A stretch of 64,000 bases of DNA, taken from assembly GCA_963734705.1 (NCBI GenBank), contig CAVTII010000015.1, forward strand, positions 400,778 to 464,777, read 5' to 3'. Positions 5,082-41,522 of this stretch are shown piece after piece. The notes under the pieces are model-generated. The model had not been told where the DNA came from. It searched no databases and worked only from the letters and a program-made list of their open reading frames with translations. Both the position numbers and the translations under genes were made by a program. How positions within the stretch are numbered: the stretch's first letter is position 1; the number at the start of each line of letters is the position of its first letter. Origin of the DNA: an uncultured Acidobacteriota bacterium (GTDB lineage: Bacteria > Acidobacteriota > Terriglobia > Acidiferrales > UBA7541).

Positions 5082-5152
5082 GGGCTGAAGTAGAAGTGAA
5101 GGAAACTCAAGAAGGCGGCCTGAAGCCGACCTTAGAGCGTCGGAACCCAGGA

Positions 5153-5177
5153 GCACAGGCAGGAGTGCCTGTGCCAC
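5153..5177 (+). repeat. REP-like hairpin GCACAGGC-AGGAGT-GCCTGTGC + CAC (GTGG variant)
   Basis: Perfect 8-bp stem. A second copy lies inside leuS at 22178. Confidence 0.7.
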
Positions 5178-11538: not shown

Positions 11539-11598
11539 GTTTTTAAAAGCGAAGAAGAGGATTTATCACAAAGGGAGCAGAGGGGCCACAGAGGTCAC

Positions 11599-11665
11599 AG
11601 AGAAGAAAAAAGAAGAGAAGAGAAAGAGAAGAGAAGAGAAGAGAAGAGAAGAGAAGAGAAGAGGA
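11599..11665 (+). repeat. 67-nt all-purine tract with (GAGAA)n microsatellite core
   Basis: The stretch contains only A and G, with about nine tandem GAGAA units. Confidence 0.9.
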
Positions 11666-11666
11666 C

Positions 11667-11698
11667 CCCAAGAGGGCACGATGTATCGTGCCCCTACA
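11667..11698 (+). repeat. REP family b (CCCCAAGAG-GGCACGATGTATCGTGCC-CCTACA)
   Basis: Near-identical copies lie at 15021, 23841 and 40031. Confidence 0.85.
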
Positions 11699-11802
11699 GC
11701 GGTGGCCATCTCTGCCGAGGATATTGATTCAGGGGCGTAGAGGCACGGAAGTAATACAGGAAAGAAGGGTGGACAGGCTGAAACCTATGCTACTGGGAGG
11801 TT

Positions 11803-11828
11803 GGCCGATCTGAAGATCGGCCACTACA
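11803..11828 (+). repeat. REP family a (GGCCGATCTGAAGATCGGCC + ACTACA)
   Basis: 9-bp stem and CTACA tail, just beyond the 3' end of the RAYT gene. Confidence 0.85.
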
Positions 11829-11861
11829 CAAGGCAAGAGGCGTGTGCGCATAGAAGGTTTG

Positions 11862-11886
11862 TGTAGTGGCCAGTCTTTAGACTGGC
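11862..11886 (-). repeat. inverted-orientation REP (TGTAG + TGGCCAGTC-TTTA-GACTGGC)
   Basis: This is the only copy I found with GTAG 5' of the hairpin on the + strand. It overlaps the RAYT stop codon. CCACTACACAA (11821) and TTGTGTAGTGG (11858) form an inverted pair. Confidence 0.65.
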
Positions 11887-12398
11887 GGGGTCGACCTCCA
11901 AACTGGAAAAAATTGTTGGCCGGTTCTCGATTTCTTGATCCACTCGATTGTCTGAGATCCGGAAAACGGATAATCCTCCGGGCGCGTGCAGAGTTGCTTG
12001 CGAACCGGGTTGGCCCAGATGTAGCAAGCGACGCCCTCAATTTCATCTCCTTTCCGCAGGATGTGATCGTAAAAGCTCATTTCCCATAGACGGCGGTTGC
12101 TTTCTTTTTTGAAATCGTAGGCCGTGCGCAGTTTGAACACCCGCACGAGCTCGAAGAGATTCGAGGTGGGCTGGGTTCCATGGGCGAGGAAATGCAGGTG
12201 GTCTGGCATGGCGGAATAGGCATGGAGAAGGAAGAACCGCTTGGCGGCGCACTCACAGAGAGTTGAAAGGACGCGTCTTGCCGTCGGAGGATTTTCGAGA
12301 TAGGGCGAGCGTCGATCACAACAGATAGTTACGAAACGAGCCTTTGTGCCCACGTAGCTCAGAAGTGGGAGGCGGATCGCTTTTCGGTGCACCGGCAT
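11877..12398 (-). CDS. REP-associated tyrosine transposase (RAYT, IS200/IS605 Y1 transposase-like)
   Basis: 173 aa. HUH motif in AMPDHLHFLAHG and catalytic-Tyr region GVACYIWANPVRKQL. The gene is flanked by REP hairpins. Confidence 0.8.
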   Translation of the reverse strand: MPVHRKAIRLPLLSYVGTKARFVTICCDRRSPYLENPPTARRVLSTLCECAAKRFFLLHAYSAMPDHLHFLAHGTQPTSNLFELVRVFKLRTAYDFKKESNRRLWEMSFYDHILRKGDEIEGVACYIWANPVRKQLCTRPEDYPFSGSQTIEWIKKSRTGQQFFPVWRSTPPV

Positions 12399-12473
12399 GA
12401 GACGGACATATAACGTAAATTAAATAGTATTGATAGATATATGTTTGCGCGAGGCGTCGGAGGGCCGACCTTC

Positions 12474-13845
12474 AGAGTCCGTGTGAGAACTCGTCTTGAC
12501 TGGTAATTTATACTGCGGGGGAGGCGAGGGGCGATGAGCAAATTTTTGGAATACCACCCGGATCAGGCGTATCTGTTGCCGCCGAGTGTACGGGATGTGC
12601 TGGGCGAAGGGCATTTGTGTTTTTTTCTGAGGCGCGTGATGGCCAGGATGAACCTGGACCGTTTTCGCGAGGACTATGGGAGCGAGGGCGGGCCGGCCTA
12701 CGCGCCGGAGATGCTGGCGTCGGTGTGGCTGTATGCCTATGCGTTGGGGGTGACCAGTTCGCGGCGGCTGGAGCAGCGCATCCGCGAGGATTTGGCGTTT
12801 CGTTATTTAGCGGGTGGGGCGACGCCGGATCATTGGACGCTGAATGCATTTCGCCGCCGCCACGGGTGCGGGCTGAACGATTTATTCACGCAGGTAGTGG
12901 AGTTGGCGCGAGCCAGCGGGCTGGCGCGACTGGGGCATGTGGCCATCGATTCGACGCGCATTGCCGGAAACGCTTCGCGGAACCGAATCGACAGCGAGCA
13001 GGCGCTGCGTGACGAACGGGCACGCTTGCGGCGGGAGATTCGCCGCTGGCAGAAGCAGTGTGACGGGGAGGATCCGAACGAAGGAGCCGGGGTGCAGGTA
13101 AGTCGGGAAGCGCTTAGCGAGCTGGAGCGGCAGTTGGGAGAAATACCCGTGCGGCTGCAACGCCTGCAGAAAAGCGGGATGCAGAAGATTTCGCGGAGCG
13201 ATCCGGACAGCCGGTTTTTGCGGGAGCGCGGTGGATTCGTGCTGGGTTATACCGGGACGCTGGCGGTGAGCGGGGATCATTTGATCGTCGCGCAGCGGGT
13301 GAGTCAGGAGACCAACGACAATGAAGCGCTGCTGCCGATGATCGATCAGGTGCAACGACGATGCGGCGAATGTCCGCAGCGAGTGAGCGCCGACAGCGGA
13401 TTTTTCTCGCACGCCAACCTGGAAGCATTGGAAGAACGGAGCATCGACGGCTATGTGCCGGACAACAATATGGCGCGGGTGCTGAATCGCGGCGGTCGAC
13501 TGCATCATCCTGCAAGGCACCCGGCGCATCAACGCATGCGACGGAAGCTACGCGACCCGGCAGGCCGGGCAGTCTATGCACGACGCAAGGCAATCGTGGA
13601 ACCAGTGAACGGAGTGCTAAAAGAACAACGAGGAATGCGGCGCTTTCGGATGAAGGGCCTCGAAAAAGTCAAAGTGGAGTGGACCCTGGCGAGCATCGCC
13701 TACAACCTTACCCGCATCTGGCGCAGTAGCTAGCCATTGCGCGGCGCAAAGCAATCCTCACCCCGCGCCCTGCAAAGCAGAATCCGTCTTTTCCCAGCAC
13801 CACGCCCGCCACAAAAATAAAAAACAGAGTCCTCACACGGACTCT
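12474..13845 (+). mobile_element. IS1182/IS5-like insertion sequence (~1.37 kb) inserted in a REP hairpin loop
   Basis: Terminal inverted repeats AGAGTCCGTGTGAGAACTC (12474) and the reverse complement of GAGTCCTCACACGGACTCT (13827..13845). The flanks GGCCGACCTTC / AAAGATCGGCCACTACA are the two halves of a family-a REP. Confidence 0.75.
12534..13733 (+). CDS. DDE transposase, IS1182-family-like
   Basis: 399 aa. The N-terminus resembles the InsH-type transposase N-terminus (YHPDQAYLLPPSVRDVL...HLCFF...YAPEMLASVWLYAYALGVTSSRRLE). The DDE region has HVAIDSTRI...VSADSGF...IVEPVNGVLK. Confidence 0.75.
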   Translation: MSKFLEYHPDQAYLLPPSVRDVLGEGHLCFFLRRVMARMNLDRFREDYGSEGGPAYAPEMLASVWLYAYALGVTSSRRLEQRIREDLAFRYLAGGATPDHWTLNAFRRRHGCGLNDLFTQVVELARASGLARLGHVAIDSTRIAGNASRNRIDSEQALRDERARLRREIRRWQKQCDGEDPNEGAGVQVSREALSELERQLGEIPVRLQRLQKSGMQKISRSDPDSRFLRERGGFVLGYTGTLAVSGDHLIVAQRVSQETNDNEALLPMIDQVQRRCGECPQRVSADSGFFSHANLEALEERSIDGYVPDNNMARVLNRGGRLHHPARHPAHQRMRRKLRDPAGRAVYARRKAIVEPVNGVLKEQRGMRRFRMKGLEKVKVEWTLASIAYNLTRIWRSS

Positions 13846-13870
13846 AAAGATCGGCCACTACACAAGGCAC

Positions 13871-14899
13871 TTAGTTGACTTGGCGGTGGAGGACGGCGGC
13901 GATTTGTTGGATTTCGAATTGGAGGTCGGCGAACTCGCTCGGGAGGATGGATTGAATGCCGTCGGAGAGGGCTTTGTCGGGCTGGTGGTGGACTTCGACG
14001 AGGAGGCCATCGCAGCCGACGGCTACGGCGGCGCGGGAGAGCGGGAGAACTTTGTGGCGTTTGCCGGTGCCGTGGCTGGGATCGACCATGATGGGAAGAT
14101 GGCTGCGTTTTTTGACGGCGGGCACGACGGCGAGGTCGAGGGTGTTGCGGGAAAAATCGGAGAAGGTGCGCACGCCGCGTTCGCAGAGGATGACGTTGTA
14201 ATTGCCTTCGCTCATCACGTATTCGGCAGCCATCAGGAATTCATCGAGCGTGGCAGCCATGCCGCGTTTGAGAAGCACGGGAAGTTTGGCGCGGCCGGCG
14301 CGTTTGAGGAGCGAGAAGTTCTGCATGTTGCGGGCGCCAATCTGGATGACGTCGGCGTATTCCTCGACGAGGTCGAGCGATTCGTTGTCGATAGCTTCGG
14401 TGACGATGCCGAGGCCGTAATGTTTGCGGACTTTTTCGAGGATTTTGAGGCCGGCGAGGCCGAGTCCCTGGAAGCTGTAGGGCGAGGTGCGCGGTTTGTA
14501 GGCGCCGCCGCGGAAAAGGCGCACGCCGGTGGGCTTGAGGAGTTCGGCGGTGCGCAGGCACTGCTCTTCGGTTTCGACGGCGCAGGGACCGGCGACCATG
14601 GCGAGATGCGGGCCGCCGACGAGGACGTCACCCGACGGAGTGGGGATGCGCACGATGGTGGAATCGGATTTAGCGTCGAGGGAGACGAGTTTATAGGGCT
14701 TGGTGACGGGAATGCATTCGACGACGCCGGGCATGGATTCGAGAATGCCGAGGTCGAGCGCATCTTTATTGCCGGTGATGCCGATGGCGGTGCGGCCGGC
14801 GCCGGGGAGCGGATGCGCTTTGAGGCCGAGGGATTCGATTTTTTCGCAGACGGAACGGACTTCGGCTTCCGTGGCGTGAGATTGCATGACGACTAACAT
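13871..14899 (-). CDS. aroF: 3-deoxy-7-phosphoheptulonate (DAHP) synthase, type I-beta with N-terminal ACT-like regulatory domain
   Basis: Start chosen at [14 protein letters not shown] with AAGGAA upstream. Conserved motifs: [47 protein letters not shown]. Confidence 0.85.
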
Positions 14900-15020
14900 G
14901 GGCGATTCCTTTGGGTGCGAAGAGAGGAGTGTACTAGAGGGAATTGGGAGGGGCAAATTTGGGAGGGGATTTCACCACGGAGGACACAGAGGGCGCGGAG
15001 TTCGGAGGGGGCCGGGGGAA

Positions 15021-15053
15021 CCCCAAGAGGGCACGATGTATCGTGCCCCTACA
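15021..15053 (+). repeat. REP family b
   Basis: CCCCAAGAGGGCACGATGTATCGTGCCCCTACA, identical to the copy at 11667. Confidence 0.85.
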
Positions 15054-15183: not shown

Positions 15184-16182
15184 TTGGGGAAGAAATTTTT
15201 GGTGAGGGCGATTGGGTTGGTAGTGGCGGGGATTTTGGTGGGGGGCGCGGCGTGGGGCCAGGGGAAGAAGATGCCGCAGCCGGGGCTGGTGGTGTTGAGC
15301 AAGGATGAGAGCCGGTTGCTGCTGCTGGATCCGGAAACGTTCAAGGTGGCGGGATATGAGTCTACAGGCGCGTATCCGCACGAGGTGGCGGTGACGGAGG
15401 ATGGGAAGCTGGCGATCACGACGAATTATGGGGCGCACGCGGATGGAGATTCACTGTCTGTGATTGATCTGGACAAGCTGCAGGAAGTGGGACACGTGAC
15501 GTATCCGGGATGCAAAGGTCCGCACGGGATTGTGATTCAGGGGAACAAGGCGTATTTCACGAACGAGGGCGACAAGACGGTGGTGGTGTTTGATTTTGTG
15601 GCCAACACGCTGGACCAGCAGATTGTGGAGGGGCAGAAGCGTCCGCACATGCTGGTGCTGACGAAGGATGGGCACACGATTTTTGTGTCGAATGTGGAGT
15701 CGAATAGCGTTTCAGTGCTGACGACGAAAGACGGCAAGTCCTGGGATCAATCGAATATTGGGACGGGAAAAGGGCCGGAAGGGGTAGATATTTCGCCGGA
15801 TGACAAGGAGGTGTGGGCGGCGAATTCGGGGGATGGAACGGTGTCTGTGATTGATGTGAAAAAGAAAAAAGTGGTGGAGAAGATTGATGTGCAGACGAAG
15901 CACTCGAACCGGTTGAAGTTTACGCCGGATGGAAAGCTGGCGCTGATTTCGGATATGGGCAGCGGGGAACTGGTGATTGTGGATACGGCGACGCGGAAGC
16001 AGGTGAAGCGGCTGCCGCTGGGGAAGAGCGCGGAGGGGATTTTGGTGCTGCCGGATGGGTCGCGGGCGTTTGTGGCGGTTAGCGGGGACGATAAGGTGGC
16101 GGTGGTGGATTTGAAGACGCTGGAGGTGACGACGTCGTTTCCGGCGGGGAAGAATCCGGATGGGCTGGCTTGGAGGAAATGA
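15184..16182 (+). CDS. YVTN-family beta-propeller repeat protein, secreted
   Basis: Signal peptide KKFLVRAIGLVVAGILVGGAAWGQG. Repeated units: GPEGVDISPDDKEVWAANSGDGTVSVID and so on. Non-ATG (TTG) start per the ORF track. Confidence 0.75.
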   Translation: MGKKFLVRAIGLVVAGILVGGAAWGQGKKMPQPGLVVLSKDESRLLLLDPETFKVAGYESTGAYPHEVAVTEDGKLAITTNYGAHADGDSLSVIDLDKLQEVGHVTYPGCKGPHGIVIQGNKAYFTNEGDKTVVVFDFVANTLDQQIVEGQKRPHMLVLTKDGHTIFVSNVESNSVSVLTTKDGKSWDQSNIGTGKGPEGVDISPDDKEVWAANSGDGTVSVIDVKKKKVVEKIDVQTKHSNRLKFTPDGKLALISDMGSGELVIVDTATRKQVKRLPLGKSAEGILVLPDGSRAFVAVSGDDKVAVVDLKTLEVTTSFPAGKNPDGLAWRK

Positions 16183-16332
16183 AGAAAGAAGGAAGTGAAG
16201 AGGTAATGAGGTAAGGAAGTAAGGAAAAGGCGTCGGATAAAGATTACCGCAGAGGCAGCAGAGGGGCCACAGAGAGCGCAGAGAAGAAAAGACGAGGGCG
16301 GAGTTGAATGGATGTTGGTGGCGGCTCGCCGT

Positions 16333-18992: not shown

Positions 18993-19095
18993 CGCTCCGG
19001 GTTGGATTGAGTCGGAATCGGGAGTGAGTTTGGGGGAAGTTTAGATTAGTGTCAAGGAGGCTGGAGAGGCCAAACTGCGTGTTAGTCGGATGGAT

Positions 19096-19121
19096 GGCCG
19101 ACTTAAAAGTCGGCCAGTACA
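19096..19121 (+). repeat. REP family a (GGCCGACTTAAAAGTCGGCC + AGTACA)
   Basis: Hairpin plus tail, read directly from the sequence. Confidence 0.8.
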
Positions 19122-19152
19122 TTGGGAGGGGACGCCTACAACCACGGGGAGC

Positions 19153-19234: not shown

Positions 19235-19358
19235 TTACGTCGGATTGAGCGTCGGCCGGCGCTGGATGGTGGCGGAGTGGGCTTCGGACTTGGGTGAAAG
19301 GGGTGTGTTAGAATGGGGGTTTAATGAGAGAGAGGAATTTGTGGTGAGCGAGACGGGG

Positions 19359-20522
19359 ATGGCGGAATTTCCAATTATCGAGAACACGAAGTTTGAGCCG
19401 GAGGATGAGTATATTCCGGTGCCGCACGTGGAGCCTGGGCCTCCTGCGTGGATGGACGGGAGCCTGCGGATCGGCATACATACTTCGATTTCTGGGAGTT
19501 ATCTGAACGCGCTGGAATCGGCGAAGAAGCTGGGGGCGAACGCGCTGCAGATTTTTTCGGCGAGCCCGCGGATGTGGCAGACAGCGAACGTGCGGATTCC
19601 AGAGTCGGATGTGAAGGCGTTTCGGGCGCGGCGGGAAGAGTTGGGGCTGGGTCCGCTGGTGATTCACGCGAATTATCTGATCAATCTGGCGGCGGGACAG
19701 CCGATGCTGCGGACGCGGTCGATCCAGGCGTTTCATGAAGAGTTGGTGCGCGGGCGGGAACTGGGCGCGGACTTTGTGGTGGTGCATCCGGGGGCGCGCG
19801 GAGAGTCGACCATCGAGCAGGCGATTTCGACGATTGTGGACAGCGTGAAGCAGGCGGCGCGGCGCGTGCCGCTGGGGAAGATGCGGATTTTGATTGAGAA
19901 CACCGCGGGGATGGGGACGGCGGTGGGGTCGCGGCTGGAAGAGGTGGCGGCGATTTTGTACGAATTGAATCGCGGCCAAGGGACGGCGGAAGGGGCAGCA
20001 CAACAGAATTCTACGGAAAACCGACCTGAAGGTCGGCCACTACAATACGCGGCTTGTTTGGACACGGCGCATTTGTTTGCGGCGGGGTATGACATCAAGA
20101 GCGAGGCGGGGTTCGAGCAGACTCTGGAGACGATTGACCGGATATTGGGATTGGAGAATGTACCGGTGTTCCACGTGAACGATTCGAAGATTCCGCTGGG
20201 TGGGCGCGTGGATCGTCACGAGAATATTGGGGATGGAAAGATCGGCGCGGAGGCGTTTGCGCGGATCTTGCGGGCGAAGCGACTGGGGAGCGCGGGGCCG
20301 GAGGGATTGGCGGGTCGGGCGTTCTTGCTGGAGACGCCGATTGATGATCCGGGCGACGACCGGAAGAATGTGGCGAAATTGTGGGCACTGGCGGGCCTGG
20401 AAGGGCCGGAGGCGGAGAAGGGATATTCGATGATGACGCCGGGGCTGAAGAAGATGATTGCGAAGGGGAAGAAGGCGAGTGCGCGGCATTTGCCGGCGGC
20501 GAAGAGTAAAAAGAAGAAGTAA
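19359..20522 (+). CDS. nfo: deoxyribonuclease IV (endonuclease IV) with internal repeat-derived insertion and Lys-rich tail
   Basis: Motifs: IGIHTSISGS, LQIFSASPRMW, VIHANYLINL, VVVHPG, ILIENTAG, CLDTAHLFAAGYD, VFHVNDS, DRHENIGDG. The start is uncertain (19359 or 19452). Confidence 0.85.
   Translation: MAEFPIIENTKFEPEDEYIPVPHVEPGPPAWMDGSLRIGIHTSISGSYLNALESAKKLGANALQIFSASPRMWQTANVRIPESDVKAFRARREELGLGPLVIHANYLINLAAGQPMLRTRSIQAFHEELVRGRELGADFVVVHPGARGESTIEQAISTIVDSVKQAARRVPLGKMRILIENTAGMGTAVGSRLEEVAAILYELNRGQGTAEGAAQQNSTENRPEGRPLQYAACLDTAHLFAAGYDIKSEAGFEQTLETIDRILGLENVPVFHVNDSKIPLGGRVDRHENIGDGKIGAEAFARILRAKRLGSAGPEGLAGRAFLLETPIDDPGDDRKNVAKLWALAGLEGPEAEKGYSMMTPGLKKMIAKGKKASARHLPAAKSKKKK
20021..20044 (+). 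repeat. REP family a copy inside the nfo coding sequence
   Basis: CCGACCTGAAGGTCGGCCACTACA is read in frame as RPEGRPLQY. Confidence 0.8.
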
Positions 20523-20770: not shown

Positions 20771-23617
20771 GTGGGGGACTACAAGCCGCAGGAGATTGAG
20801 GCGAAGTGGCAGAAGCGGTGGGAAGAGAACCGCGTATTTGAGGCGGAAGCGGAAGTGGGGGAGCGGCAGCCTGCGGCTGGTGCCGGGGAGAGTGCGGACA
20901 AGATTTCGGAGAAGACTGCGGAGAAGAGGTCGGAGGAGCCCGGTTCGAAAGGCGAACCTGGGGCTCAGGCTGGCCGGCCCTTCGTAGCTCAGGGTAAACA
21001 AGATGCAGGCGCTACCAAGAGGAAATATTATGTGCTGGAGATGCTGCCGTATCCTTCGGGGACGCTGCATATGGGGCACATGCGCAACTACACAATTGGG
21101 GACGTGGTTGCGCGGGTAAAGAGAATGCGCGGGTACAACGTGCTGCACCCGATGGGGTGGGACGCGTTTGGCCTGCCGGCAGAAAATGCGGCGATCAAGA
21201 ACCACACGCATCCGCGTGTGTGGACCAATAAAAACATTGCGGAATTTCAGAGGGTGCTGCGGCGCTTCGGGTTCAGTTATGACTGGCGGCGGGAAATTTC
21301 CACGTGCGAGCCGGAATATTACCGGTGGAACCAATGGTTTTTCCTGCGCATGCTGGAGCGGGGGATTGCGTACAAGAAAAAGAGCCGGGTGAACTGGTGT
21401 CCGAAATGCTGCACGGTGCTGGCGAACGAGCAGGTGGTGAACGGGGGATATTGCTGGCGGCATGAAGATACGCGCGTGGAAGCGCGGGAGATTGAGCAGT
21501 GGTTTTTGAAGATCACGGCGTATGCGGAGCAGTTGCTGGAGGATCTGAAGCAGTTGGAGGGTGCGTGGCCGGATCGCGTGATCGCGATGCAGAGGAATTG
21601 GATTGGGAAGTCGGTGGGGGCGAAGGTTTGGTTTGCGATAGAAGGGGAAAAGAGTTTCATCACAGAGGACACGGAGGGCACAGAGAAGGAAGGGAAGAGG
21701 CGGATTGAGATTTTTACTACGCGGATTGACACGATTTATGGGGCTAGCGCGATTATTTTGGCGCCGAATCATCCGATGGTGGTGGGGTTGGTGGGGGCCG
21801 CAGTGGCGGATCCGGAGGCCGACCTGAAGGTCGGCCACTACACTTCGGAGGGGCGAGCTGCGAAGTTGGGGGCGATGAAGGCGTCTTCGGTTAAGGCGGA
21901 GGATATTGCTACTGCGGAGAAGGATGGGTTTTTTACGGGGCGGTATGCGATCAATCCGTTTAGTCGGGAGCGGGTGCCCATTTGGGTGGGAAATTTTGTG
22001 CTGATGGAGTATGGGACCGGGGCGATTATGGCGGTGCCGGCGCATGATGAGCGGGATAACGAGTTTGCGGTGAATTTTGGGTTGCGGATTCCGGTGGTGG
22101 TGGCAGAAGAGAAGAACAGAAAACCTAACGCAGAGACGCTGAGGGCACAGAGTTCCGCGGAGGAAGAAACCCCAAGAGCACAGGAAGGAGTGCCTGTGCC
22201 ACATTTGTTTACGGAGTATGGGTATAGCGTGAATTCGGGTAAGTATTCGGGGTTGCGGTCGGAAGAGGCGATTGAGCGGATGGCGGCGGATGGGGAGGCC
22301 GGCGGATTTGGGAAGAAGGAGACGATTTTTCGTCTGCGGGATTGGGGAATTTCGCGGCAAAGATATTGGGGCACGCCGATCCCGGTGATTTATTGCGACA
22401 AGGATGGGATGGTGCCGGTGCCGGATGACCAGTTGCCCGTGGTGCTGCCGGCGAATCCGAAGTTGACGGGGGAAGGGCAGTCTCCGCTGGCAACGGATCC
22501 GGACTTTGTGAATGTGAAATGCCCGAAGTGCGGCGGGCCGGCGCGGCGCGATGCGGATACGATGGACACGTTTGTGGATTCGTCGTGGTATTTCTACCGG
22601 TACACGGATGCGAAAAACGATCGGGCGCCGTTTGATCCGGCGAAAGCGGGATATTGGTTTCCGATTGACCAGTATATCGGCGGGATCACGCACGCGATTC
22701 TGCACCTGCTCTATTCGAGGTTCTGGTGCAAAGTGATGCGAGATCTGGGATTGGTGAAGCACGACGAGCCGATTGCGCGGCTGTTTACGCAGGGAATGGT
22801 GCAAAAGGGCGGCGTGGCGATGTCGAAATCGCGCGGGAATGTGGTGGGCGCGGAAGAGATGGCGGAGAAGTATGGGGCGGATACGGGGAGAATTTATACA
22901 CTGTTTGCGGCGCCGCCGGAGAAGGATCTGGAGTGGAGCGAAGAGAGTATTGAGGGTGCGTGGAGGTTTTTGAATCGGGTATATCGAGTTATCGACAAGC
23001 ATGCGGGCTCCGCGAGAGAAGTGGCGAGTGGCGAGTGGCGGGTGGCGAGTGAAGAGAAAAAGGATAACGCAGAGACGCTGAGCGCGCAGAGGTTCGCAGA
23101 GAAAGAGAAGTGGACGGAGAAGGAGAAGGGGTTGCTGCGGAAGGCGCACCAGACTTTGCGGAGGGTGACGCAGGATTTTGAGGGGCGGTGGCATTTTAAT
23201 TCGGCGATTGCGCAGATTATGGAATTGGTGAATGCGATTTATGCGGCGGAGCCGCTGGAAGAGGGCGTGCGGGCGGTGGTACGGAAGGAAGTGCTGGAGT
23301 TGGTGACGCTGATGCTGGCGCCGATGACGCCGCATCTGGCGGAAGAGTTGTGGGAGAAGCTGGGGCATGCGAATGGGTTGTGGACCGTGGGATGGCCGGA
23401 GTTTAATGCGGATTTGGCGAAACAGGATGAGGTGGAAATTCCGGTGCAGGTGAATGGAAAGGTGCGGGCGCGGCTGACGGTGCCGGCGGGGTCGGGGCAG
23501 GATGTGGTGATGGAGAAGGCGATGGCGGATGCGGTGGTGAAGGGGTATTTGGCGGGGAAGACGGTGCGGAAGGTGATTTTTGTGGGGGATAAGATGTTGA
23601 ATTTGGTGGTGGGGTAG
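20771..23617 (+). CDS. leuS: leucine--tRNA ligase
   Basis: Motifs: [47 protein letters not shown], the KMSKS motif as VAMSKSRGN, and the editing (CP1) domain. GTG start. It contains several repeat-derived in-frame segments. Confidence 0.95.
20968..21016 (+). repeat. composite repeat ...CCCTTCGTAGCTCAGGGTAAACAAGATGCAGGCGCTACC inside leuS
   Basis: The same unit occurs intergenically at 28383..28425, 29812..29855 and 41475..41521. Confidence 0.8.
21817..21842 (+). repeat. REP family a copy inside leuS
   Basis: GGCCGACCTGAAGGTCGGCCACTACA is read as ADLKVGHYT. Confidence 0.85.
22178..22202 (+). repeat. REP-like hairpin (GCACAGG-AAGGAGT-GCCTGTGC + CAC) inside leuS
   Basis: Same as 5153. It is preceded by ACCCCAAGA and a CACAGAG module, as in the intergenic composites. 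Confidence 0.8.
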
Positions 23618-23747: not shown

Positions 23748-23840
23748 ATGGGGAGAAGATTGGAAGAGAAAGTATTAACACCGAGAACACAGGGGCGGAG
23801 CACAGAGGGCACGGAGAAGCGGGGAGCGGAGGAAGAGTAA

Positions 23841-23873
23841 CCCAAGAGGGGCACGATTTATCGTGCCCCTACA
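23841..23873 (+). repeat. REP family b
   Basis: CCCAAGAGGGGCACGATTTATCGTGCCCCTACA. Confidence 0.85.
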
Positions 23874-28122: not shown

Positions 28123-28208
28123 GTGTCGCGCCTACGGCGCTTGGGATGTTTCGGGGTTTTTTCCCCAGCTTACGCGCTGGGCTAGATTGTTTTGCGCTTA
28201 CGGCGCTT
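28123..28208 (+). repeat. ~86-bp three-hairpin interspersed repeat (GCGCCTACGGCGC ... CCCAGC-N-GCTGGG ... GCGCTTACGGCGC)
   Basis: Copies lie at 36626..36710 and 38551..38638. Confidence 0.75.
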
Positions 28209-28468
28209 GTTTGGGAGCGGGATTGGTATTCGCGACGAATTTAGGTGTCAGCAGAAAGAGCGGGAAGGCTCGAGAATCCAAGCAATCGACATAAAGCAGC
28301 CCTTACGGAATCGAAGGTTGGGAGAAGAGGGCGACCGCCTGCGCCGCAAAAGGCGCGGCTACGGCGGGCTGGCCCTTGCTCGCCTGGCCTTCGTTGCTCA
28401 GGGTAAACAAGATACAGGCGCCACCATGGCGTGCAGCTACGCGGAGCACGGGACACGAGACATGTGGG

Positions 28469-29617: not shown

Positions 29618-29762
29618 TTCGCGTTGGGAGGGGGTGGCCGGTCCGGGGACCGGCCACTGCATTGATGTCTCCTGCAGGATTGCTCGGTTGCTGTAGGGTA
29701 TTCCCGGATGAGGGGAAGAAAGTTCCCGGGAGTTGGGTGGGGGTTTGGTATGCTCCCCCCTT

Positions 29763-29893
29763 CGCCCGCCTTCGCCGCGTGAGGCGCGCGGCTACGGCGG
29801 GCTGGCCCGGGGTGCCTGCCCTTCGATGCTCAGGGTAAACAAGATGCAGGCCCTACCGGTGGCGCGGCCCGCTTCAGAAAGCGGGCGCTACGG
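29763..29893 (+). repeat. tandem block of three repeat modules (CGCC-TTCGCCGC..GCGGCTACGGCGGG; CCCTTCGATGCTCAGGGTAAACAAGATGCAGGCCCTACC; GGCCCGC-TTCAGAAA-GCGGGCGCTAC)
   Basis: Each module recurs elsewhere (9612, 28331, 38824, 41428). Confidence 0.7.
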
Positions 29894-29906
29894 AGAGAGA
29901 AAAGGG

Positions 29907-30866
29907 ATGAAGCGGAAATTTTTGGTGGATACGGATACGGCTTCGGATGATGCGGTGGCGCTGATTATGGCGCTGCGGTCACCGGAGGTGGAGGTGGTTG
30001 GGATTACTGCGGTGGCGGGGAATGTGGAGGTGCGACAGGCGAGCCGGAATGCGTTGTATACGGCGGAACTCTGTGGCGCGAATGTACCGGTGTTTACTGG
30101 GGCGGAGAAGCCGCTGACGCGGGCGCATAAGAGTGCGGACTGGTTCCACGGGAAGGATGGGTTGGGGGATCACGGGTATGCAGCGCCGCGGCGGGAGTCG
30201 GAAAAGTTGGCGGCGTGGGATGCGATTGTGGAGTTGGTGGAGGCGCATCCGGGATTGGTGATGGTAACGCTGGGGCCGCTTACGAATGTGGCGTTGGCGC
30301 TGCAGCGCGCGCCGGAGATTGCGCGGAAGGTTGGCCGGTGCGTGGTGATGGGCGGGGCGCCGTGCTGCGAAGGGAATGTGACGCCGGCGGCGGAATACAA
30401 CATCTGGTGCGATCCGGAGGCGGCGCGAATCGTGGTGCGGAGCGGGTTGCCGGTGGAGTTGGTGGGATGGCATTTGTGCCGCGGAGATGCGGTGTTGAAT
30501 CCGCAGGATATTGACAAAGTTTTGGGCTTCGGGACGCCGCTGGCGAAATTTGCGATTGAGTGCAACAGCCGGGCGAAGGAGGCGTATTTTGTGCAGACCG
30601 GGGAGCACGGAATTTCGTTGCCGGACCCGGTGGCGATGGCAGTGGCGTTGAAGGAAGAGATTGTGACGTCGGCATCAGAGCATTGGATGGATGTGGAGAC
30701 GGAGAGCGCTCTGACGCTGGGAATGACGGTGGTTGACCGGTTGAATGTTGCGGAGGATGAGCGGAATCGCGAGGTGTGGGCGAGGAAGAGGGGGAGGAAG
30801 GCGAAGATTGTTTGGGAGATTAAAAATGAGGAGTGGAAAGCGGAGTTGTTTGCGAGGTTGAGGTAA
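29907..30866 (+). CDS. nucleoside hydrolase (inosine/uridine-preferring family)
   Basis: Start chosen at MKRKFLVDTDTASDDAVALIMAL (DXDXXXDD motif). Further motifs: VVGITAVAGNV, TLGPLTNVA. Confidence 0.85.
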   Translation: MKRKFLVDTDTASDDAVALIMALRSPEVEVVGITAVAGNVEVRQASRNALYTAELCGANVPVFTGAEKPLTRAHKSADWFHGKDGLGDHGYAAPRRESEKLAAWDAIVELVEAHPGLVMVTLGPLTNVALALQRAPEIARKVGRCVVMGGAPCCEGNVTPAAEYNIWCDPEAARIVVRSGLPVELVGWHLCRGDAVLNPQDIDKVLGFGTPLAKFAIECNSRAKEAYFVQTGEHGISLPDPVAMAVALKEEIVTSASEHWMDVETESALTLGMTVVDRLNVAEDERNREVWARKRGRKAKIVWEIKNEEWKAELFARLR

Positions 30867-30959: not shown

Positions 30960-31274
30960 TTTTTTTGGGCGGGAAAGTGGGGGAGTTTTTTGTCGTAGCG
31001 CGTTGGCAGAGGGCGGTGGAGGAGAGATATTGCTGCGGTGATAGGTTGAGATCCTTCGGCCCGCTTAGGGCGCCCTTCGCGAAAGCGCTTGGGGCGAGCG
31101 GGCCTCAGGATGACAGGTTTTTTTTCGGTGCGGTGAGAGAAGAGGGATTTTTTTTGGGGCGGGTCGGAGTGGTGACGAGTTTTGGGAGCGGCGGTAGGTT
31201 TCGGGATTGAGGAATGCTTGAAATCGAAGAGGGATGGGCAAGCCCATCCCCTACAAGGAAAGGAGAGGAGGAAT

Positions 31275-32336
31275 ATGTACATAGGTGGGGGGTATATGCG
31301 GAATGGTTGGGTGGCCGTGGCGCTTGTGATTGGGATGCTGGTGACGGGAAGTATGTTGGGGGCGGCGGCGAAGGGGAGCGGGGAGGGAAAGGCGACGCTG
31401 CTGGTGGTGAACCAGGGCGATGCGAATTTGAGTCTAGTGGATCCGGTGGCGGAAAAGGTGGTGGGCGGGATTTCTGAGGAGTTGACGGACGTGCACGGAC
31501 ACGAAGTGGCGGCTTCGCCGGATGGGCAGACGGCGTACGTGCCGATTTACGGAAGCACCGGTGTGGGGAAGCCAGGCATTGACGGGCACGAAATGCTGGT
31601 GATGGATATCAAGAAAAAGAAGATTACCGGCCGCGTGGATTTTGGGAGCGGCGTGCGGCCGCACTGCGTGGTGTATGACCCGGTGAGCAAGATGCTTTAC
31701 GTGACCACAGAGCTGAAGAACAGCGTGACGATTGTGGATCCGAAGACGCTGAAGATTGTGGGAGAAATCCCGACGGGGCAGGCCGAGTCTCACATGCTGG
31801 CGATTTCGCCGGATGGGCAGCGGGGGTACACAGCGAATGTGGGGCCGGGGACAGTGTCCGTGCTGGATATTCCGGGACGCAAAACGATCGCGGTGATTCC
31901 GGTTTCACAGACGGTGCAGCGGATCGCGCTTTCGCGCAGCGGAGGGACGGCGTTCACGGCGGACCAGACGAAGCCGCAACTGGTGGTGATTGATACGGCG
32001 ACGGACACGGTGAAGCGGCGGATCGATTTGCCTTCGCTGGCGTACGGAACGGCGGCGACGCTGGATGGGCAATGGCTGGTGGTGACGACGGATCATGCCG
32101 TGGCGGTGGTGGACCTGGGGATACTGGAAGTGTCGCAGATGATTGATGTGCCGGGGAAACCGCAGGAGGTGCTGATGTCGCCGGATGGAAGAGTGGCGTA
32201 CATTTCGTGCGAGATGGGCGCGGAAAATGGCAAGGTGGCGGTGCTGGATTTGCACGAGTGGAAGGTGAAGGCGTTGATCGATGCGGGGAAGTATCCGGAT
32301 GGATTGGCTTGGGCGGAAGGGGGAGAAACGAAGTAA
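31275..32336 (+). CDS. YVTN-family beta-propeller repeat protein, secreted
   Basis: ATG preceded by AGGAGAGGAGG. Signal peptide WVAVALVIGMLVTGSMLGAAA. It is a paralogue of 15184..16182 and 5185..6315. Confidence 0.75.
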   Translation: MYIGGGYMRNGWVAVALVIGMLVTGSMLGAAAKGSGEGKATLLVVNQGDANLSLVDPVAEKVVGGISEELTDVHGHEVAASPDGQTAYVPIYGSTGVGKPGIDGHEMLVMDIKKKKITGRVDFGSGVRPHCVVYDPVSKMLYVTTELKNSVTIVDPKTLKIVGEIPTGQAESHMLAISPDGQRGYTANVGPGTVSVLDIPGRKTIAVIPVSQTVQRIALSRSGGTAFTADQTKPQLVVIDTATDTVKRRIDLPSLAYGTAATLDGQWLVVTTDHAVAVVDLGILEVSQMIDVPGKPQEVLMSPDGRVAYISCEMGAENGKVAVLDLHEWKVKALIDAGKYPDGLAWAEGGETK

Positions 32337-32517
32337 GGAAATAAGGAAGTAAAGAAGTAATGAAATAAAGAAGTAATGGGATAAGAAAAAGGCGGGATTG
32401 GAGAAGACGGCCTGCTACAGTCGGCGGGCCCTACCGGATGATTGCGGAGACGCGGCAGCACCGGGATGGAATGGGAGTGGGATTTGAAATAGGATGGGGC
32501 GGGACAGGAGGCAGGAC

Positions 32518-33239: not shown

Positions 33240-33575
33240 ATGCAAGGATTACGCCCGCAGGATCGGCGACAGAGCCGACGCCTGAAAATTGGACAGCCGC
33301 TGAAGCTGCGCCCAACAGACCCGCAGGTTGCGGTGTTTGAAGATTTCAGCACCACGAAAAATGTGTCCCGCGAGGGGATTTATTTTCTGACGCAGAAGAA
33401 GGCGTACCTGGAGGGGATGCGGCTGTTTGTGACGCTGCCCTACCACGGGCCGAACGACATGCGGAACCACGAGTACGTGGGACAGGTGCTGCGGGTGGAC
33501 ATGAGCCGGGAAGGCCAGTGGGGGGTTGCGCTGCAACTGCTGACGCCGCTGACGAGTAATGAAGTAAAGAAATAA
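33240..33575 (+). CDS. PilZ domain protein (c-di-GMP binding)
   Basis: It has the RRQSRR (RxxxR) and NVSREG (D/NxSxxG) motif pair at the correct spacing. Confidence 0.75.
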   Translation: MQGLRPQDRRQSRRLKIGQPLKLRPTDPQVAVFEDFSTTKNVSREGIYFLTQKKAYLEGMRLFVTLPYHGPNDMRNHEYVGQVLRVDMSREGQWGVALQLLTPLTSNEVKK

Positions 33576-33783
33576 AGAAAAAGCGGAAGAGGGAATTCAC
33601 CACAGAGGGCACAGAGCACACGGAGAAATTCGGAGTTCAGGAAGAAGTTGGATGGTCCCACCGTTGTTAAAGTGAAATCCAGGACAATTTAAGTGAATTG
33701 AAATCCAGCGGAGTGGCGACGCATGGCGGTGAGCGGGCGTGCTAAGCTCGCAGGTCCAGCCAAATTACCGGTGCGAGGAGCGT

Positions 33784-36612
33784 ATGGGGGAAGAAAACGC
33801 CAAGCCTGGGCCTGATCCGGAAACCGGCAAGAGAAGCGACGCAAATTCCAAAGAGACAAACGAACAGCAGAGCGCACAGCCAAATCCAGAGCTGGAGGAG
33901 ACGTTCGAAGGGACGGCTCGCACCGCTGGAGGGAATGAAACCACTCTGGAGGGTGGAGGGCGAACGCCTAGCGGCGCGGGGCTGGGCGCTCGCTCGATTG
34001 GACCCTACACGCTGCTGCGCATACTGGGCGAAGGCGGCATGGGACAGGTGTGGCTGGCGGAACAGACTACGCCGGTGAAGCGGCGCGTGGCGCTGAAGCT
34101 GATCAAGGGCGGACTCTACGACAACCGGGTGATGCAGCGGTTTGATGCCGAGCGCCAATCGCTGGCGGTGATGAATCACCCGACGATCGCGAAGATTTTC
34201 GATGCGGGCTCAACGGCGGATGGGCAGCCGTATTTCGTAATGGAGTACGTGGATGGGCCTTCCATCACGCGTTATTGCGACAATAAAAAGTTTAAAATTC
34301 GCGAGCGGCTAGAATTGTTTATGAAGGTTTGCGAAGGCGTGCAGTACGCGCACCAGAAGGCGATCATTCACCGAGACCTGAAGCCATCGAACGTGCTGGT
34401 GGAAGAGGTGGACGGCAAACCGGTGCCGCGGATTATTGATTTCGGAATCGCGAAAGCAATTATCGCCGAAGGAGATGAGGAGCGCGCGCAGATGACGCGG
34501 GCGGGCGCGCTGATCGGGACGCCAGGATTTATCAGCTCGGAACAGGCGGATCCGGGTTTGCAGGACGTGGATACGCGCGCGGACGTTTACTCACTGGGAG
34601 TGATTCTTTATGTGCTGCTGACGGGCTGTTTGCCGTCTGACCACAGAGAGTGGACCAACCGGCCGATTGATGAAGTGCTGCGGCAATTGCGGCAGGAAGA
34701 CCCGCCAAGTCCAAGCGCGAAACTGAGAGACGACCGGAAGACAGCGACGGAAAGCGCCGAGAAACGATCCAGCGACCAGGAGCAGTTGGTGAGCCAACTG
34801 CGCGGGGACCTGGACTGGATCACGATGAAGGCGGTGGAGAAAGACCGCACGCGGCGGTATGGAAAGCCGACGGAGCTTGCGGCGGACATCGAGCGGTATC
34901 TGACGAACCAGCCGGTGACAGCGCGAAAGGCGAGCGCGGGGTACCGGCTGCAGAAATATGTGCGGCGGCACCGGCTGGGCGTGGCGGTTGGACTGGGGGC
35001 GGCGGCATTGCTGGTGGTTTTCGCAGGGATGCAGACTGTGGAGTTGCGGCGGATCCGGCGGGAGCGTGACCGGGCAAACCGGATCGCGGAGTTTATGTCC
35101 AACATGTTTCGTGTTTCAGACCCGAGCGAGTCAAGAGGGAATACGGTGACCGCGCGGGAGATTTTGGATAAGGCGGCGGCGAATATTGACAAGGGACTGA
35201 CGCAAGATCCGGGAGTGCGTACGCAGTTGATGGATTTGACGGGGACGGTGTACCAGAATTTGGGATTGTATTCCAGGTCGCAGGCGCTGCTGGAGCGCGC
35301 CGTGGAGATTCAGAAGCAGGCGCTTGGGCCGGAGAAGGAGGAGACGCTGAAGTCGGAATCGGATCTGGCATGGACGCTGGATCACGAAGGGGAGTACGCG
35401 GAAGCGGAAAAACTGGAGCGGGAAGTGTTGGCGGCCGAGCACCGCACGATGGGTGCGACGGACCCGCAAACCATCCGGACCATGAACAACCTGGGGTGGA
35501 CACTGCACCGAGGAGGCCATCCGGCAGAGGCGGAGAAGGTGGAGCTGGGGTCCAGCGTGGCGGCGCGGAAAGCGTTTGGAGCGCAAAGTCCGCTGACGAT
35601 TGCCGCGGAGGCCAACCTGGCGGTGATTCTGTCTTCCGAAGAAAAATATCCGGAGGCGGAAAAACTGCAGCGAGAGCTGCTGGAAGCCTACCGGAAACTC
35701 TATGGAGCGGACCAGCCGGAGACTTTGCAGGTGATGGACAACCTGGCAACCACGCTGAGCCATGAGAAGAAATACGCGGACGCGGAGAAACTGGAGCGCG
35801 AGACTTTGGAGGCGGAGCGACGCGTGTTGGGTCCAGACCATCCGTTTACCGCCGAAACGATCGACAACCTGGCGTACACGCTGCTGCGAGACGGACACTA
35901 CGCGGAAGCGGAAGCAATGCAGCGGGAATCGCTGGAGATTGAAAAGCGCGTCTTAGGGCCGGAACACCCAGACACGCTGCTGACGATGCTGAATATCGCG
36001 GTGACGCTGAATGCAGTGGGCAAGGTGGCGGAGGGAGACAAACTGGCACGGGAAACGCTGGGAATCTCACAACGCGTGTTGGGGCCAGCGCACCCGTTCA
36101 CGCCGAACACGATGCAATATTTTGTGGAGGAATATACGCCGCTGCACAAATACAAAGAAGTGGAGATGGAGCAGCGCGAGATTTTGGTGGTGGAGGAGAA
36201 GAATTTTGGGCCAGAAGATCCGAGGCCTTTAAGTGAGATGCAGTCGATCGCGTTTACGCTGGCGAATGAGAAACGATTTGAGGATGCGCAGAGGATGCTG
36301 GGGGCGGTAAGGGAGATTCAGAGGAAGAAATTGGGCATGGATGATGCGCGGACGGCGGGGACGACGTACAACATGGCGTGCATTGCCGCGCGTGCGGGGA
36401 AGAAGGAGGAGGCGCTGGCGTATTTGCAGGAGGCGATGGAGAACGGGTTGGGGGCGGATGTGGCGGCGGGGATGGGGGAGGATACGGATTTGGCGGGATT
36501 GCGGAGGGATGTGAGATTTGCGGGTTTGGTGGAAGAGGGAAGAAGAGGGGAACGAAGTAAAGAGGAGGGATGCGGGGATATTTTTGCGGGGAGCGAGAAT
36601 CTTGGGTCGTGA
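33784..36612 (+). CDS. Ser/Thr protein kinase with one TM segment and C-terminal TPR repeat array
   Basis: Kinase motifs: GEGGMGQVWLA, VALKLIK, HRDLKPSNVLV, DFGIAK, GTPGFISSEQ. TM: LGVAVGLGAAALLVVFAG. Then about 12 repeats of the type YAEAEKLEREVL...LG.DHP.T. The start is uncertain. Confidence 0.9.
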   Translation: MGEENAKPGPDPETGKRSDANSKETNEQQSAQPNPELEETFEGTARTAGGNETTLEGGGRTPSGAGLGARSIGPYTLLRILGEGGMGQVWLAEQTTPVKRRVALKLIKGGLYDNRVMQRFDAERQSLAVMNHPTIAKIFDAGSTADGQPYFVMEYVDGPSITRYCDNKKFKIRERLELFMKVCEGVQYAHQKAIIHRDLKPSNVLVEEVDGKPVPRIIDFGIAKAIIAEGDEERAQMTRAGALIGTPGFISSEQADPGLQDVDTRADVYSLGVILYVLLTGCLPSDHREWTNRPIDEVLRQLRQEDPPSPSAKLRDDRKTATESAEKRSSDQEQLVSQLRGDLDWITMKAVEKDRTRRYGKPTELAADIERYLTNQPVTARKASAGYRLQKYVRRHRLGVAVGLGAAALLVVFAGMQTVELRRIRRERDRANRIAEFMSNMFRVSDPSESRGNTVTAREILDKAAANIDKGLTQDPGVRTQLMDLTGTVYQNLGLYSRSQALLERAVEIQKQALGPEKEETLKSESDLAWTLDHEGEYAEAEKLEREVLAAEHRTMGATDPQTIRTMNNLGWTLHRGGHPAEAEKVELGSSVAARKAFGAQSPLTIAAEANLAVILSSEEKYPEAEKLQRELLEAYRKLYGADQPETLQVMDNLATTLSHEKKYADAEKLERETLEAERRVLGPDHPFTAETIDNLAYTLLRDGHYAEAEAMQRESLEIEKRVLGPEHPDTLLTMLNIAVTLNAVGKVAEGDKLARETLGISQRVLGPAHPFTPNTMQYFVEEYTPLHKYKEVEMEQREILVVEEKNFGPEDPRPLSEMQSIAFTLANEKRFEDAQRMLGAVREIQRKKLGMDDARTAGTTYNMACIAARAGKKEEALAYLQEAMENGLGADVAAGMGEDTDLAGLRRDVRFAGLVEEGRRGERSKEEGCGDIFAGSENLGS

Positions 36613-36625
36613 CTGGGTGAGAATG

Positions 36626-36710
36626 TGTCGCGCCTACGGCGCTGGGATTTGGGTGGGTGATGACCCAGGGCTGCGCGCTGGGCAAGACTCTTGCGCGGCT
36701 CCGCAGCTGG
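36626..36710 (+). repeat. ~86-bp three-hairpin repeat (family as 28123)
   Basis: TGTCGCGCCTACGGCGCTGGGA...CCCAGGGCTGCGCGCTGGGC...GCGCGGCTCCGCAGCTGG. Confidence 0.7.
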
Positions 36711-38550: not shown

Positions 38551-38638
38551 TGGCGCGCCTACGGCGCTTTCGGCGTTTGGAGAGGGATTACCCCGGGCTT
38601 GCGCCCGCGGCTAGATTGTGGCGCGCCTCCGGCGCTGG
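38551..38638 (+). repeat. ~86-bp three-hairpin repeat (family as 28123)
   Basis: TGGCGCGCCTACGGCGCT...CCCCGGGCTTGCGCCCGCGGCTAGATTGTGGCGCGCCTCCGGCGCTGG. Confidence 0.7.
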
Positions 38639-41427: not shown

Positions 41428-41522
41428 GCGGGCCGCATCCCTCCTTCGGCGGGCAGGCGGAATGCGGGGCCCTGACTTGCCTGCCCTTCGACGCTCAGGG
41501 TACACAAGATGCAGGCGTTACG
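41428..41522 (+). repeat. composite repeat block (GGCGGGCCGCATCC...GGAATGCGGGGCCC; CCCTTCGACGCTCAGGGTACACAAGATGCAGGCGTTAC)
   Basis: Same modules as 28331..28425 and 29763..29855. Confidence 0.7.

Follow-up and report, generated by a model that had tools for sequence, protein, structure and literature searches.

Interspersed repeat DNA inserted in frame at five sites of a leucyl-tRNA synthetase gene from an uncultured acidobacterium

The subject of this study is leuS, the gene for leucyl-tRNA synthetase (LeuRS), in a 64,000-nucleotide stretch of contig CAVTII010000015.1 (assembly GCA_963734705.1, positions 400,778 to 464,777) from an uncultured soil bacterium of the Terriglobia, phylum Acidobacteriota. 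The whole stretch is called the window below, and all positions are in its numbering. The gene (20771-23617, + strand) is intact and codes for 948 amino acids (aa), about 112 aa beyond insertion-free orthologues. As judged from sequence comparison, the protein contains five segments that are lineage-specific in-frame insertions of repeat DNA. We consider it probable that these segments are the genome's own interspersed repeats, which colonised leuS and then underwent local cassette turnover. The colonising DNA comprises hairpins of the repetitive extragenic palindrome (REP) type with a CTAC foot, together with the purine-rich 9-nt and 7-nt modules that accompany such hairpins in intergenic cassettes. 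This selfish repeat invasion of an essential, conserved enzyme extends to about 12% of the protein and to five loops, three of them presumably in the editing domain. A 12-kb stretch contains the translated copies, the gene for a REP-associated tyrosine transposase (RAYT) and the REPs that go with it, and shows the polarity of these REPs along the strand, so that an old question, how and on which strand REPs move, becomes testable in a new phylum.

Five private segments in an intact leuS gene

The initial annotation had described leuS as an uninterrupted open reading frame (ORF) containing repeat-like stretches. The frame is indeed intact, and its product matches bacterial LeuRS of solved structure (E about 1e-247). 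From species-representative genomes we gathered 80 acidobacterial leuS loci, which match over about 830-836 codons and reach at best 66% identity. A MAFFT alignment of the window LeuRS with 23 of these 80 orthologues left exactly five segments private to the window protein, and the same five gaps appeared against Thermus thermophilus LeuRS (PDB 1h3n) in a HMMER alignment (Table 1). The segments are absent from all 23 orthologues and from 1h3n, and are in that sense specific to this lineage. In ins3 the REP hairpin folds at -19.2 kcal/mol (z -2.9), and the REP-b hairpin of ins4 has a 7-bp stem (-12 kcal/mol, z -2.5). Hairpin structure is also present in ins1, both in its second part and in the outer stem of its REP-c unit.

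Table 1 Positions of the leuS insertions, related repeats and the RAYT gene in the window
Feature	Position	Strand	Private protein segment	Description
ins1 (hot spot S1)	20846-21016	+	aa 26-76 = nt 20846-20998; 51 extra aa	three-part mosaic
ins1, part 1	20889-20935	+		12-nt tandem stretch
ins1, part 2	20936-20966	+		hairpin, translated as 11 aa
ins1, part 3	20967-21016	+		long-form REP-c, ends GCAGGCGCTACC; translated as 14 aa
ins2 (S2)	21653-21703	+	aa 295-311 = nt 21653-21703; about 13 aa net	non-palindromic array of 9-nt units NNCRCAGAG, translated as 16 aa
ins3 (S3)	21809-21859	+	aa 352-363 = nt 21824-21859; 12 aa	perfect REP-a at 21817-21841 (GGCCGACCTGAAGGTCGGCC+ACTAC; 8-bp stem, 4-nt loop), translated ADLKVGHY
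ins4 (S4)	22120-22207	+	aa 461-479 = nt 22151-22207; 19 aa	complete composite element, translated as 26 aa: 9-mer array 22127-22152; ACCCCAAGAG 22169-22178; REP-b hairpin 22178-22199, then CAC
ins5 (S5)	23021-23098	+	aa 760-776 = nt 23048-23098; 17 aa	(GTGGCGA)x4 23021-23048 and 9-mer array 23066-23091; 27 aa
Intergenic REP-c, long form	41455-41521	+		ins1 type; more copies at 28313-28425, 29804-29857
Intergenic cassette	14970-15053	+		ins4 order: 9-mer array, ACCCCAAGAG, hairpin, CTACA
Similar cassettes	11563-11699; 23775-23873; 33581-33627; 16244-16307			that at 23775-23873 just downstream of leuS
Intergenic REP-b	5146-5177	+		CCCAGGAGCACAGGCAGGAGTGCCTGTGCCAC, 94% identical to ins4 3' end
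RAYT	11877-12398	-		173 aa; HUH motif PDHLHFL, Y motif CYIWANPV
REP-a inverted pair	11802-11829; 11861-11886	+; -		by the RAYT 3' end
REP-a, other RAYT side	12457-13866	+		loop split by an insertion sequence; halves 12457-12475, 13843-13866
REP-a inside nfo	20017-20043	+		AP_endonuc_2 gene; translated NRPEGRPLQY, frame differs from leuS

The sites were placed in the protein from conserved motifs in the alignment to 1h3n. S1 presumably lies just ahead of the strand leading into the HIGH motif. S2, S3 and S4 sit in what we take to be the connective polypeptide 1 (CP1) editing domain, S2 four codons upstream of the threonine-rich peptide TTRID, presumably the editing-site motif, and S4 after the AHDERD motif. 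S5 we assign to a helix-loop of the anticodon-binding domain, after KMSKS. The initial annotation had placed the insertions in surface linkers. This has indirect support, in that all five are gaps relative to solved LeuRS and lie between predicted secondary-structure elements; the structural model itself is poor. AlphaFold2, run on an alignment of 120 relatives that is too shallow, gave a predicted local distance difference test (pLDDT) score of 60.5 and a predicted template modelling score (pTM) of 0.50, with the catalytic core below 50. Within this model ins2 and ins4 score below 50, and S3 has high pLDDT.

The window LeuRS and all aligned acidobacterial orthologues lack the leucine-specific domain. 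In place of about 60 residues of T. thermophilus LeuRS there are 16 aa at residues 672-687 (22784-22831), a short replacement reminiscent of the GKDG linker of Mycoplasma mobile LeuRS (PMC3643597). LeuRS of more distant Acidobacteriaceae (L025, L032, L051, L073) have unrelated insertions of their own at the S2 position, for example LGTRDQGLE or a 30-40 aa acidic stretch, and the loop preceding the TTR(I/P)D motif seems generally permissive.

The same repeats in intergenic DNA

Each segment was compared with the window by BLASTN with sensitive settings and a 128-kb search space. The similarities exceed chance, and shuffled sequences gave no matches. All matches have the same orientation as the insert, and almost every partner copy lies between genes. 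For the 3' part of ins1 the partners are 41455-41521, 28313-28425 and 29804-29857 (E 2e-11 to 2e-10); ins2 matches 33581-33627, 14970-15009, 16256-16307 and 11578-11617 (E 5e-5 to 1e-3), and ins3 matches 1577-1608, 20021-20049, 19087-19131 and 11803-11829 (E 7e-6 to 5e-5). ins4 matches ins5 (80% over 56 nt, E 1.5e-8), and its 3' end matches 5146-5177 (94% over 32 nt, E 8e-7). These significant matches bear out the earlier proposal that the leuS segments are built from intergenic repeat modules in the same orientation; every repeat string quoted in its support was located where it had been reported.

The modules follow a fixed order in the intergenic cassettes, (NNCRCAGAG)n, then ACCCCAAGAG, then a hairpin, then CTACA, and ins4 is a complete cassette of this kind. 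REP-c occurs in a long and a short form, both of which are also found between genes (39981; 28369, 29801, 41466). REP-a ends in the foot ..GGCC-ACTAC and REP-c in ..GCAGGC-GCTACC, CTAC being GTAG, the foot typical of REPs, as it reads on the other strand. When intergenic copies are conceptually translated, they reproduce LeuRS insert peptides such as LADLKIGHY.

The exact 25-nt REP-a is present in 91 metagenome contigs, mostly outside real coding regions. Long stop-to-stop ORFs do run over REP-a in these contigs; most are N-terminal read-through of a T-poor strand and were not counted as intragenic. The true intragenic cases among them are LeuRS (L124, L175) and a MiaB-like ORF (L173). A candidate within the window was also rejected: repeats at 29763-29891 fall inside an IU_nuc_hydro ORF (29733-30866), but with the Pfam domain beginning only at residue 64 and an ATG available at 29908 they are upstream and noncoding.

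Module turnover among relatives

A protein search recovered an identical protein from an independent JGI contig (P0001) and 119 relatives with 64-88% identity and lengths of 842-1114 aa. These 120 proteins share the five insertion positions and vary widely in insert length, the extra residues numbering 0-132 at S1, 0-97 at S2, 0-23 at S3, 5-114 at S4 and 0-77 at S5. In a tree based on 736 core columns, the outgroups have no extra residue at any of the five sites. The inserts of the relatives are combinations of about 12 recurring peptide modules, which include TPRAQAGVPVPH, KKTQDPGAKTAPGAP, FTTEGTE.., NAETQRAQSS, SKPAPL.TKGAAP, DPPFAKGAKGRPP and AGRQDAGAT. In different proteins the modules occupy S1, S2, S4 and S5; elsewhere in the 120 proteins there are four stray matches to loose patterns.

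Codon alignments of the window leuS with nine syntenic loci show how quickly this content changes. Of L082 and L083, whose cores are 97.8% identical (dS 0.16), one has a 14-aa module at S2 that the other lacks, and at S4 NAETQRAQSS in one is swapped for FTTEGTEGPQSSQRR in the other. The window gene and L081 are 95.7% identical in the core, with unrelated content at S1. At the ins1 site L082 and L083 have the short REP-c form GCCTGCAAGATGCAGGCGCTACC, and the 21-nt piece by which they differ from window ins1 is the very one that sets the long intergenic form apart from the short one. S3 in relatives contains REP-a sub-family variants with complementary stem changes (GAC..GTC versus GGT..[ACT]CC).

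The core of leuS is under purifying selection, with a ratio of nonsynonymous to synonymous substitution rates (dN/dS) of 0.13. In clearly orthologous inserts, and from small counts, the ratio is about 0.65 at S1 and about 1.2 at S4, which suggests that the inserts evolve near-neutrally. Only such clearly orthologous pairs were interpreted; values for whole hot spots were discarded because non-homologous modules had been aligned together, giving an apparent dS of 0.6-1.6. Codon-by-codon comparison of filled with empty alleles (L084, L085) at S1 and S3 revealed neither terminal inverted repeats nor target-site duplications, the flanks being variable.

Reading frames and other genes with translated repeats

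More than 100 alleles keep the frame and avoid stops at all five leuS sites. This is our main, though indirect, argument that the segments are translated, and we infer from it that they are retained in the mature LeuRS. The frame in which a given repeat is read is not fixed. Among LeuRS relatives the 9-mer array is read in all three frames (TEGTE, HRGHR, AETQRAQ). REP-a is read in one frame in leuS and in another in nfo, which argues that the insertions arose as DNA and not as selected peptides; nowhere is REP-a read in its TGA-containing frame.

In the nfo gene just upstream, the only hot spot is flanked by EEVAAILYELN and AACLDTAHL and lies within an ORF at 19245-20522 whose true start is probably near 19356 (GMAEFP). 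In relatives this site contains 1-6 tandem REP-a units, read GRPEGRP.. (about six in L082), and it is empty in L085, L086 and all outgroups. The N-terminus of guaA in L082 includes GKSTGRSAGATSMP, which is REP-b in a third frame, read KSTGRSAGAT. An internal insert of about 60 aa in the MiaB-like methylthiotransferase of L173 includes two REP-b units (RAQAGVPVPQ, AQPGMVVP).

A RAYT gene and strand polarity

The RAYT gene lies about 9 kb upstream of leuS. Its ORF matches Pfam Y1_Tnp (E 1.6e-8) and the NCBIfam equivalog NF047646 (91.1 bits, cutoff 80), and the protein matches E. coli TnpA-REP (PDB 4er8, E 1.2e-4) with the HUH and Y motifs aligned. A 55% identical orthologue occupies the syntenic place in L086. 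The REPs that flank the gene are of the REP-a family, to which the hairpin of ins3 also belongs. Features of a REPtron seen in the window are short G+C-rich hairpins with the GTAG foot, copies that are dispersed and mainly extragenic, and a RAYT flanked by REP-a. The presence of this bona fide RAYT strengthens the connection to REPs that had been drawn from the repeats themselves. The pair of REP-a units adjoining the RAYT gene is the sole clear inverted REP pair in the window; REP clusters are arranged head-to-tail. The REP-a on the other side of the gene is interrupted by an insertion sequence (IS) with a DDE_Tnp_1/DUF772 ORF at 12534-13733 and inverted ends gagtccgtgtgaga... at about 12476 and 13842. 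Its location in the REP-a loop is another instance of an IS targeting a REP.

The repeats show a pronounced strand polarity. All repeat matches in the window are on the same strand, and perfect elements consisting of a hairpin and CTAC number 15 on the + strand and 2 on the - strand. Over ten syntenic loci the corresponding counts are 54 and 5. The 9-mer arrays number 14 versus 0 by strand, with 1.4 and 0.16 expected. Among the 91 metagenome contigs with exact REP-a, the strand that reads CTAC is G-rich in 80 and C-rich in 7, and REP orientation thus tracks strand asymmetry, not gene direction. The asymmetry itself is strong: GC skew, measured on the + strand, ranges from +0.25 to +0.32 in the first 48 kb of the window and falls to about 0.1 or less beyond. 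It persists in - strand genes such as that for DAHP synthase (13871-14956, 0.29) and that at 42161-45460 (0.25), and in intergenic DNA (0.27). In nine ingroup loci (L081-L089) the skew is 0.27-0.36, compared with -0.14 to 0.22 in most insertion-free outgroups. Single-strand, replication-linked transposition and its bearing on orientation are treated by Quentin et al. (PMC6006769). The polarity seen here is what such a mechanism would give and is consistent with it, without proving it.

Origin and turnover of the insertions

If the leuS segments derive from colonising repeats, as we think probable, their history may be pictured as follows. Repeat units would enter, or be copied into, many places in the genome. 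For the hairpin units the agent is most likely the RAYT, an HUH/Y1 enzyme acting on single strands, and such action would also explain the near-uniform orientation of the copies relative to GC skew. Within an essential gene, only those copies that keep the frame, contain no stop and fall in tolerant loops would survive, to be translated as hydrophilic, probably disordered loops. An occupied site would then turn into a hot spot, with more units added alongside. Tandem units could slip, the 9-nt unit and the 21-nt difference between REP-c forms being frame-neutral, and modules would be swapped through recombination, ectopic or allelic, with the numerous copies elsewhere. An enzyme that is otherwise strongly conserved would end up with five hypervariable loops.

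Several observations weigh against this account or limit it. The initial annotation spoke of palindromic elements, which is apt for ins3, the 3' end of ins4 and parts of ins1; it does not describe ins2 and ins5, which, like the 5' half of ins1, fold no better than shuffled sequences (z about 0). The significant matches of ins1 fall in its 3' part; its 5' half has no significant intergenic match in the window by BLASTN. A second copy of the (GTGGCGA)x4 array of ins5 was sought across the window and none was found. These components (ins2, ins5, the 5' half of ins1 and (GTGGCGA)n) may have spread by another route. The foot of REP-b is CCAC (GTGG on the opposite strand), not CTAC, and the positional tie to the RAYT holds for REP-a only, not for REP-b, REP-c or REP-d. 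Inverted doublets of the type known as REPINs or bacterial interspersed mosaic elements (BIMEs) are nearly absent, as the strand counts in the window and over the ten loci indicate. The variable flanks blur the junctions and any target motif in the comparison of filled with empty alleles. Finally, S3 has a dN/dS of about 0.1 and is thus constrained, and its allele class shares flanking residues; S3 may be one old insertion and not the product of recurrent events.

Some of these points fit a possible, though less probable, alternative in which the inserts are derived from repeats without a transposase. Purine-rich arrays would grow by slippage, modules including the hairpins would be exchanged by ectopic gene conversion and allelic recombination, and the RAYT would be a bystander. 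The unstructured tandem arrays of ins2 and ins5 and the frame-neutral unit sizes agree with this, as does the finding that alleles differ by swaps of whole modules equal to the intergenic sub-family differences. The S3 allele class with common flanks (LASRA.. versus IAGT..) likewise suggests exchange of whole alleles. Slippage, however, cannot seed a repeat at a repeat-free site, and the hairpins bear the CTAC/GTAG foot that defines RAYT substrates in a genome where a RAYT flanked by such hairpins is present. A strict polarity tied to skew is expected of single-strand transposition and not of gene conversion. In the turnover phase this alternative overlaps with the colonisation that we favour.

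It appears very unlikely that LeuRS gained the segments in this lineage through selection on the protein for a function, for instance as interaction loops, with the likeness to intergenic DNA secondary. S3 would be the best candidate, being conserved in many relatives with low dN/dS and high pLDDT, and the loss of the leucine-specific domain from the LeuRS of this phylum makes compensating additions conceivable. The same DNA is nevertheless read in other frames in nfo and guaA, most copies are intergenic, a given module can occupy one site or another, near-identical genes differ in the modules they possess, and dN/dS is near 1 at S1 and S4. We find it harder still to believe that the segments are removed before the mature protein is made, as an intron, an intein or a bypassed stretch, leaving a canonical LeuRS. 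For it one can say only that hairpins could in principle be processing signals. If the segments were excised, the preservation of frame and the avoidance of stops over more than 100 independent alleles would be needless; at 12-51 aa they are too short for inteins, and an Rfam scan of the window at gathering thresholds found no intron family or other self-splicing RNA. Least credible of all is an assembly artefact that placed collapsed or chimeric repeats in leuS. The window and its relatives do come from metagenomes, and repeats are prone to misassembly, yet the identical protein occurs in the independent contig P0001, and the 120 relatives, from JGI, ENA and NCBI assemblies with contigs of long-read scale (1-5 Mb), have their insertions at the same five codon positions and always in frame.

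Colonisation by the genome's own repeats, with the RAYT as the likely agent for the hairpin units, raises a broader and more speculative idea, to which we attach rather low confidence. The RAYT-linked, strand-polar repeat system might sustain an ongoing in-frame diversification of loops in housekeeping proteins of this Terriglobia clade. Units open in several frames on the G-rich strand would colonise co-oriented genes, and a seeded site would become a cassette-exchange hot spot whose turnover outpaces the saturation of synonymous sites, perhaps in mechanistic coupling to the extreme GC skew. If so, loop diversification would amount to a natural genome-wide domain-insertion scan. The more than 100 natural leuS alleles in any case chart positions that tolerate insertions of 0-130 residues, which is useful for LeuRS engineering, and they also help to understand the birth of new loops and linkers.

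Relation to known repeat systems

Rickettsia palindromic elements (RPEs) were reportedly described by Ogata et al. in 2000, and are summarised in PMC3733652, as selfish palindromic repeats situated in frame in functional, often essential genes. The likeness to RPEs suggested in the initial annotation is apt: the leuS segments, too, are lineage-specific and in frame at positions that the fold apparently tolerates, in a gene that is intact and, to judge from the core dN/dS, functional. RPE-1, in contrast, is a single element of about 100-150 bp with no known transposase, whereas the hairpin units in leuS are CTAC-foot REPs of 25-50 nt, with a cognate RAYT present, and are combined into variable mosaics. 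The hosts are unrelated, and the likeness concerns the pattern of insertion.

The initial annotation knew of no in-frame elements of the REP/RAYT type. Such elements have been described, and the basic phenomenon of REPs in frame inside genes is already published. Di Nocera, De Gregorio and Rocco (2013, BMC Genomics 14:522; PMC3733652) found GTAG/CGTC REPs wholly inside ORFs of known function with the frame unbroken, among them tRNA synthetase genes of X. oryzae, E. litoralis and S. alaskensis. The intragenic REPs were single or clustered, clusters encoded 43-82 aa, and sometimes there were two per gene; the authors also equated RPE-4 and RPE-6 of R. conorii with CGTC REPs and reported a GTGG-type variant foot. 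By the definition used there (a REP wholly enclosed by an ORF of more than 120 aa with known function, the frame being kept and shorter homologues lacking the REP), leuS ins1, ins3 and ins4 and the nfo insertion are intragenic REPs. The systems are alike in that short hairpins with a GTAG foot, associated with a RAYT, are mostly extragenic and in a minority of cases lie in ORFs. In leuS, by contrast, there are five separate sites in a single gene; the inserts are mosaics of hairpin families and non-palindromic 9-nt and 7-nt arrays; modules turn over among near-identical genes; and copies are single or head-to-tail in one orientation, not inverted dimers. The survey did not cover the uncultured Terriglobia lineage of this leuS.

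In-frame REPs have also been reported inside tnpAREP genes of subclass 2.4 (Quentin et al. 2018; PMC6006769). There, too, the frame is kept and the REPs lie in loops between conserved motifs; those REPs sit in the transposase gene, whereas the ones described here are in housekeeping genes, namely leuS, nfo, the N-terminus of guaA (in relatives) and the MiaB-like gene of L173. With the REP/BIME-RAYT systems of E. coli and Pseudomonas (REPtrons, REPINs; Nunvar 2010; Bertels & Rainey 2011; Ton-Hoang 2012; 4er8) the window shares a single RAYT flanked by its own REP family, the GTAG foot, several REP sub-families that differ by compensatory changes in the stem, clusters of mosaic type and an IS in a REP. 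Canonical REPs are extragenic and typically form inverted pairs; here the polarity is about 10:1 along an extreme GC skew, and copies are translated within genes. In the IS200/IS605 family (PMC6006769) a Y1 HUH enzyme acts on hairpin single strands at the fork, which leads to an orientation bias that matches the polarity seen here; the leuS repeats differ in that their units have no transposase gene of their own.

We found no specific report of translated REP inserts in the literature on Acidobacteria or Ca. Acidoferrum. The locus differs from the published cases in its five hot spots, the non-palindromic companion modules, the fast exchange of modules over more than 100 alleles, the scarcity of inverted doublets, the polarity tied to skew and the host lineage near Ca. 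Acidoferrum.

Other repeat families and annotation

Translated repeats lengthen proteins and create spurious small ORFs, and should be recognised as such in the annotation of acidobacterial metagenomes. The sole match at the Rfam gathering level in the window, Acido-Lenti-1 (RF01687, 38.6 bits) at 38591-38636 (+), is one member of an intergenic repeat family with further members at 28163-28207, 36599-36643 and 36664-36708, so that this 'sRNA motif' may be a dispersed repeat.

At 16175-16226, 32321-32388 and 33547-33587, immediately after the ends of + strand genes, there are arrays of 3-9 copies of an 8-nt unit resembling GGAAGTAA. Two of them follow paralogous beta-propeller/lactonase genes (15184-16182 and 31182-32336). 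The 9-mer arrays at 11576, 16248, 23631, 23801, 33601, 46700 and 9651 are directly 3' of the stops of + strand genes or overlap them. They may represent 3'-untranslated-region elements, and in two cases they provide the C-terminal codons.

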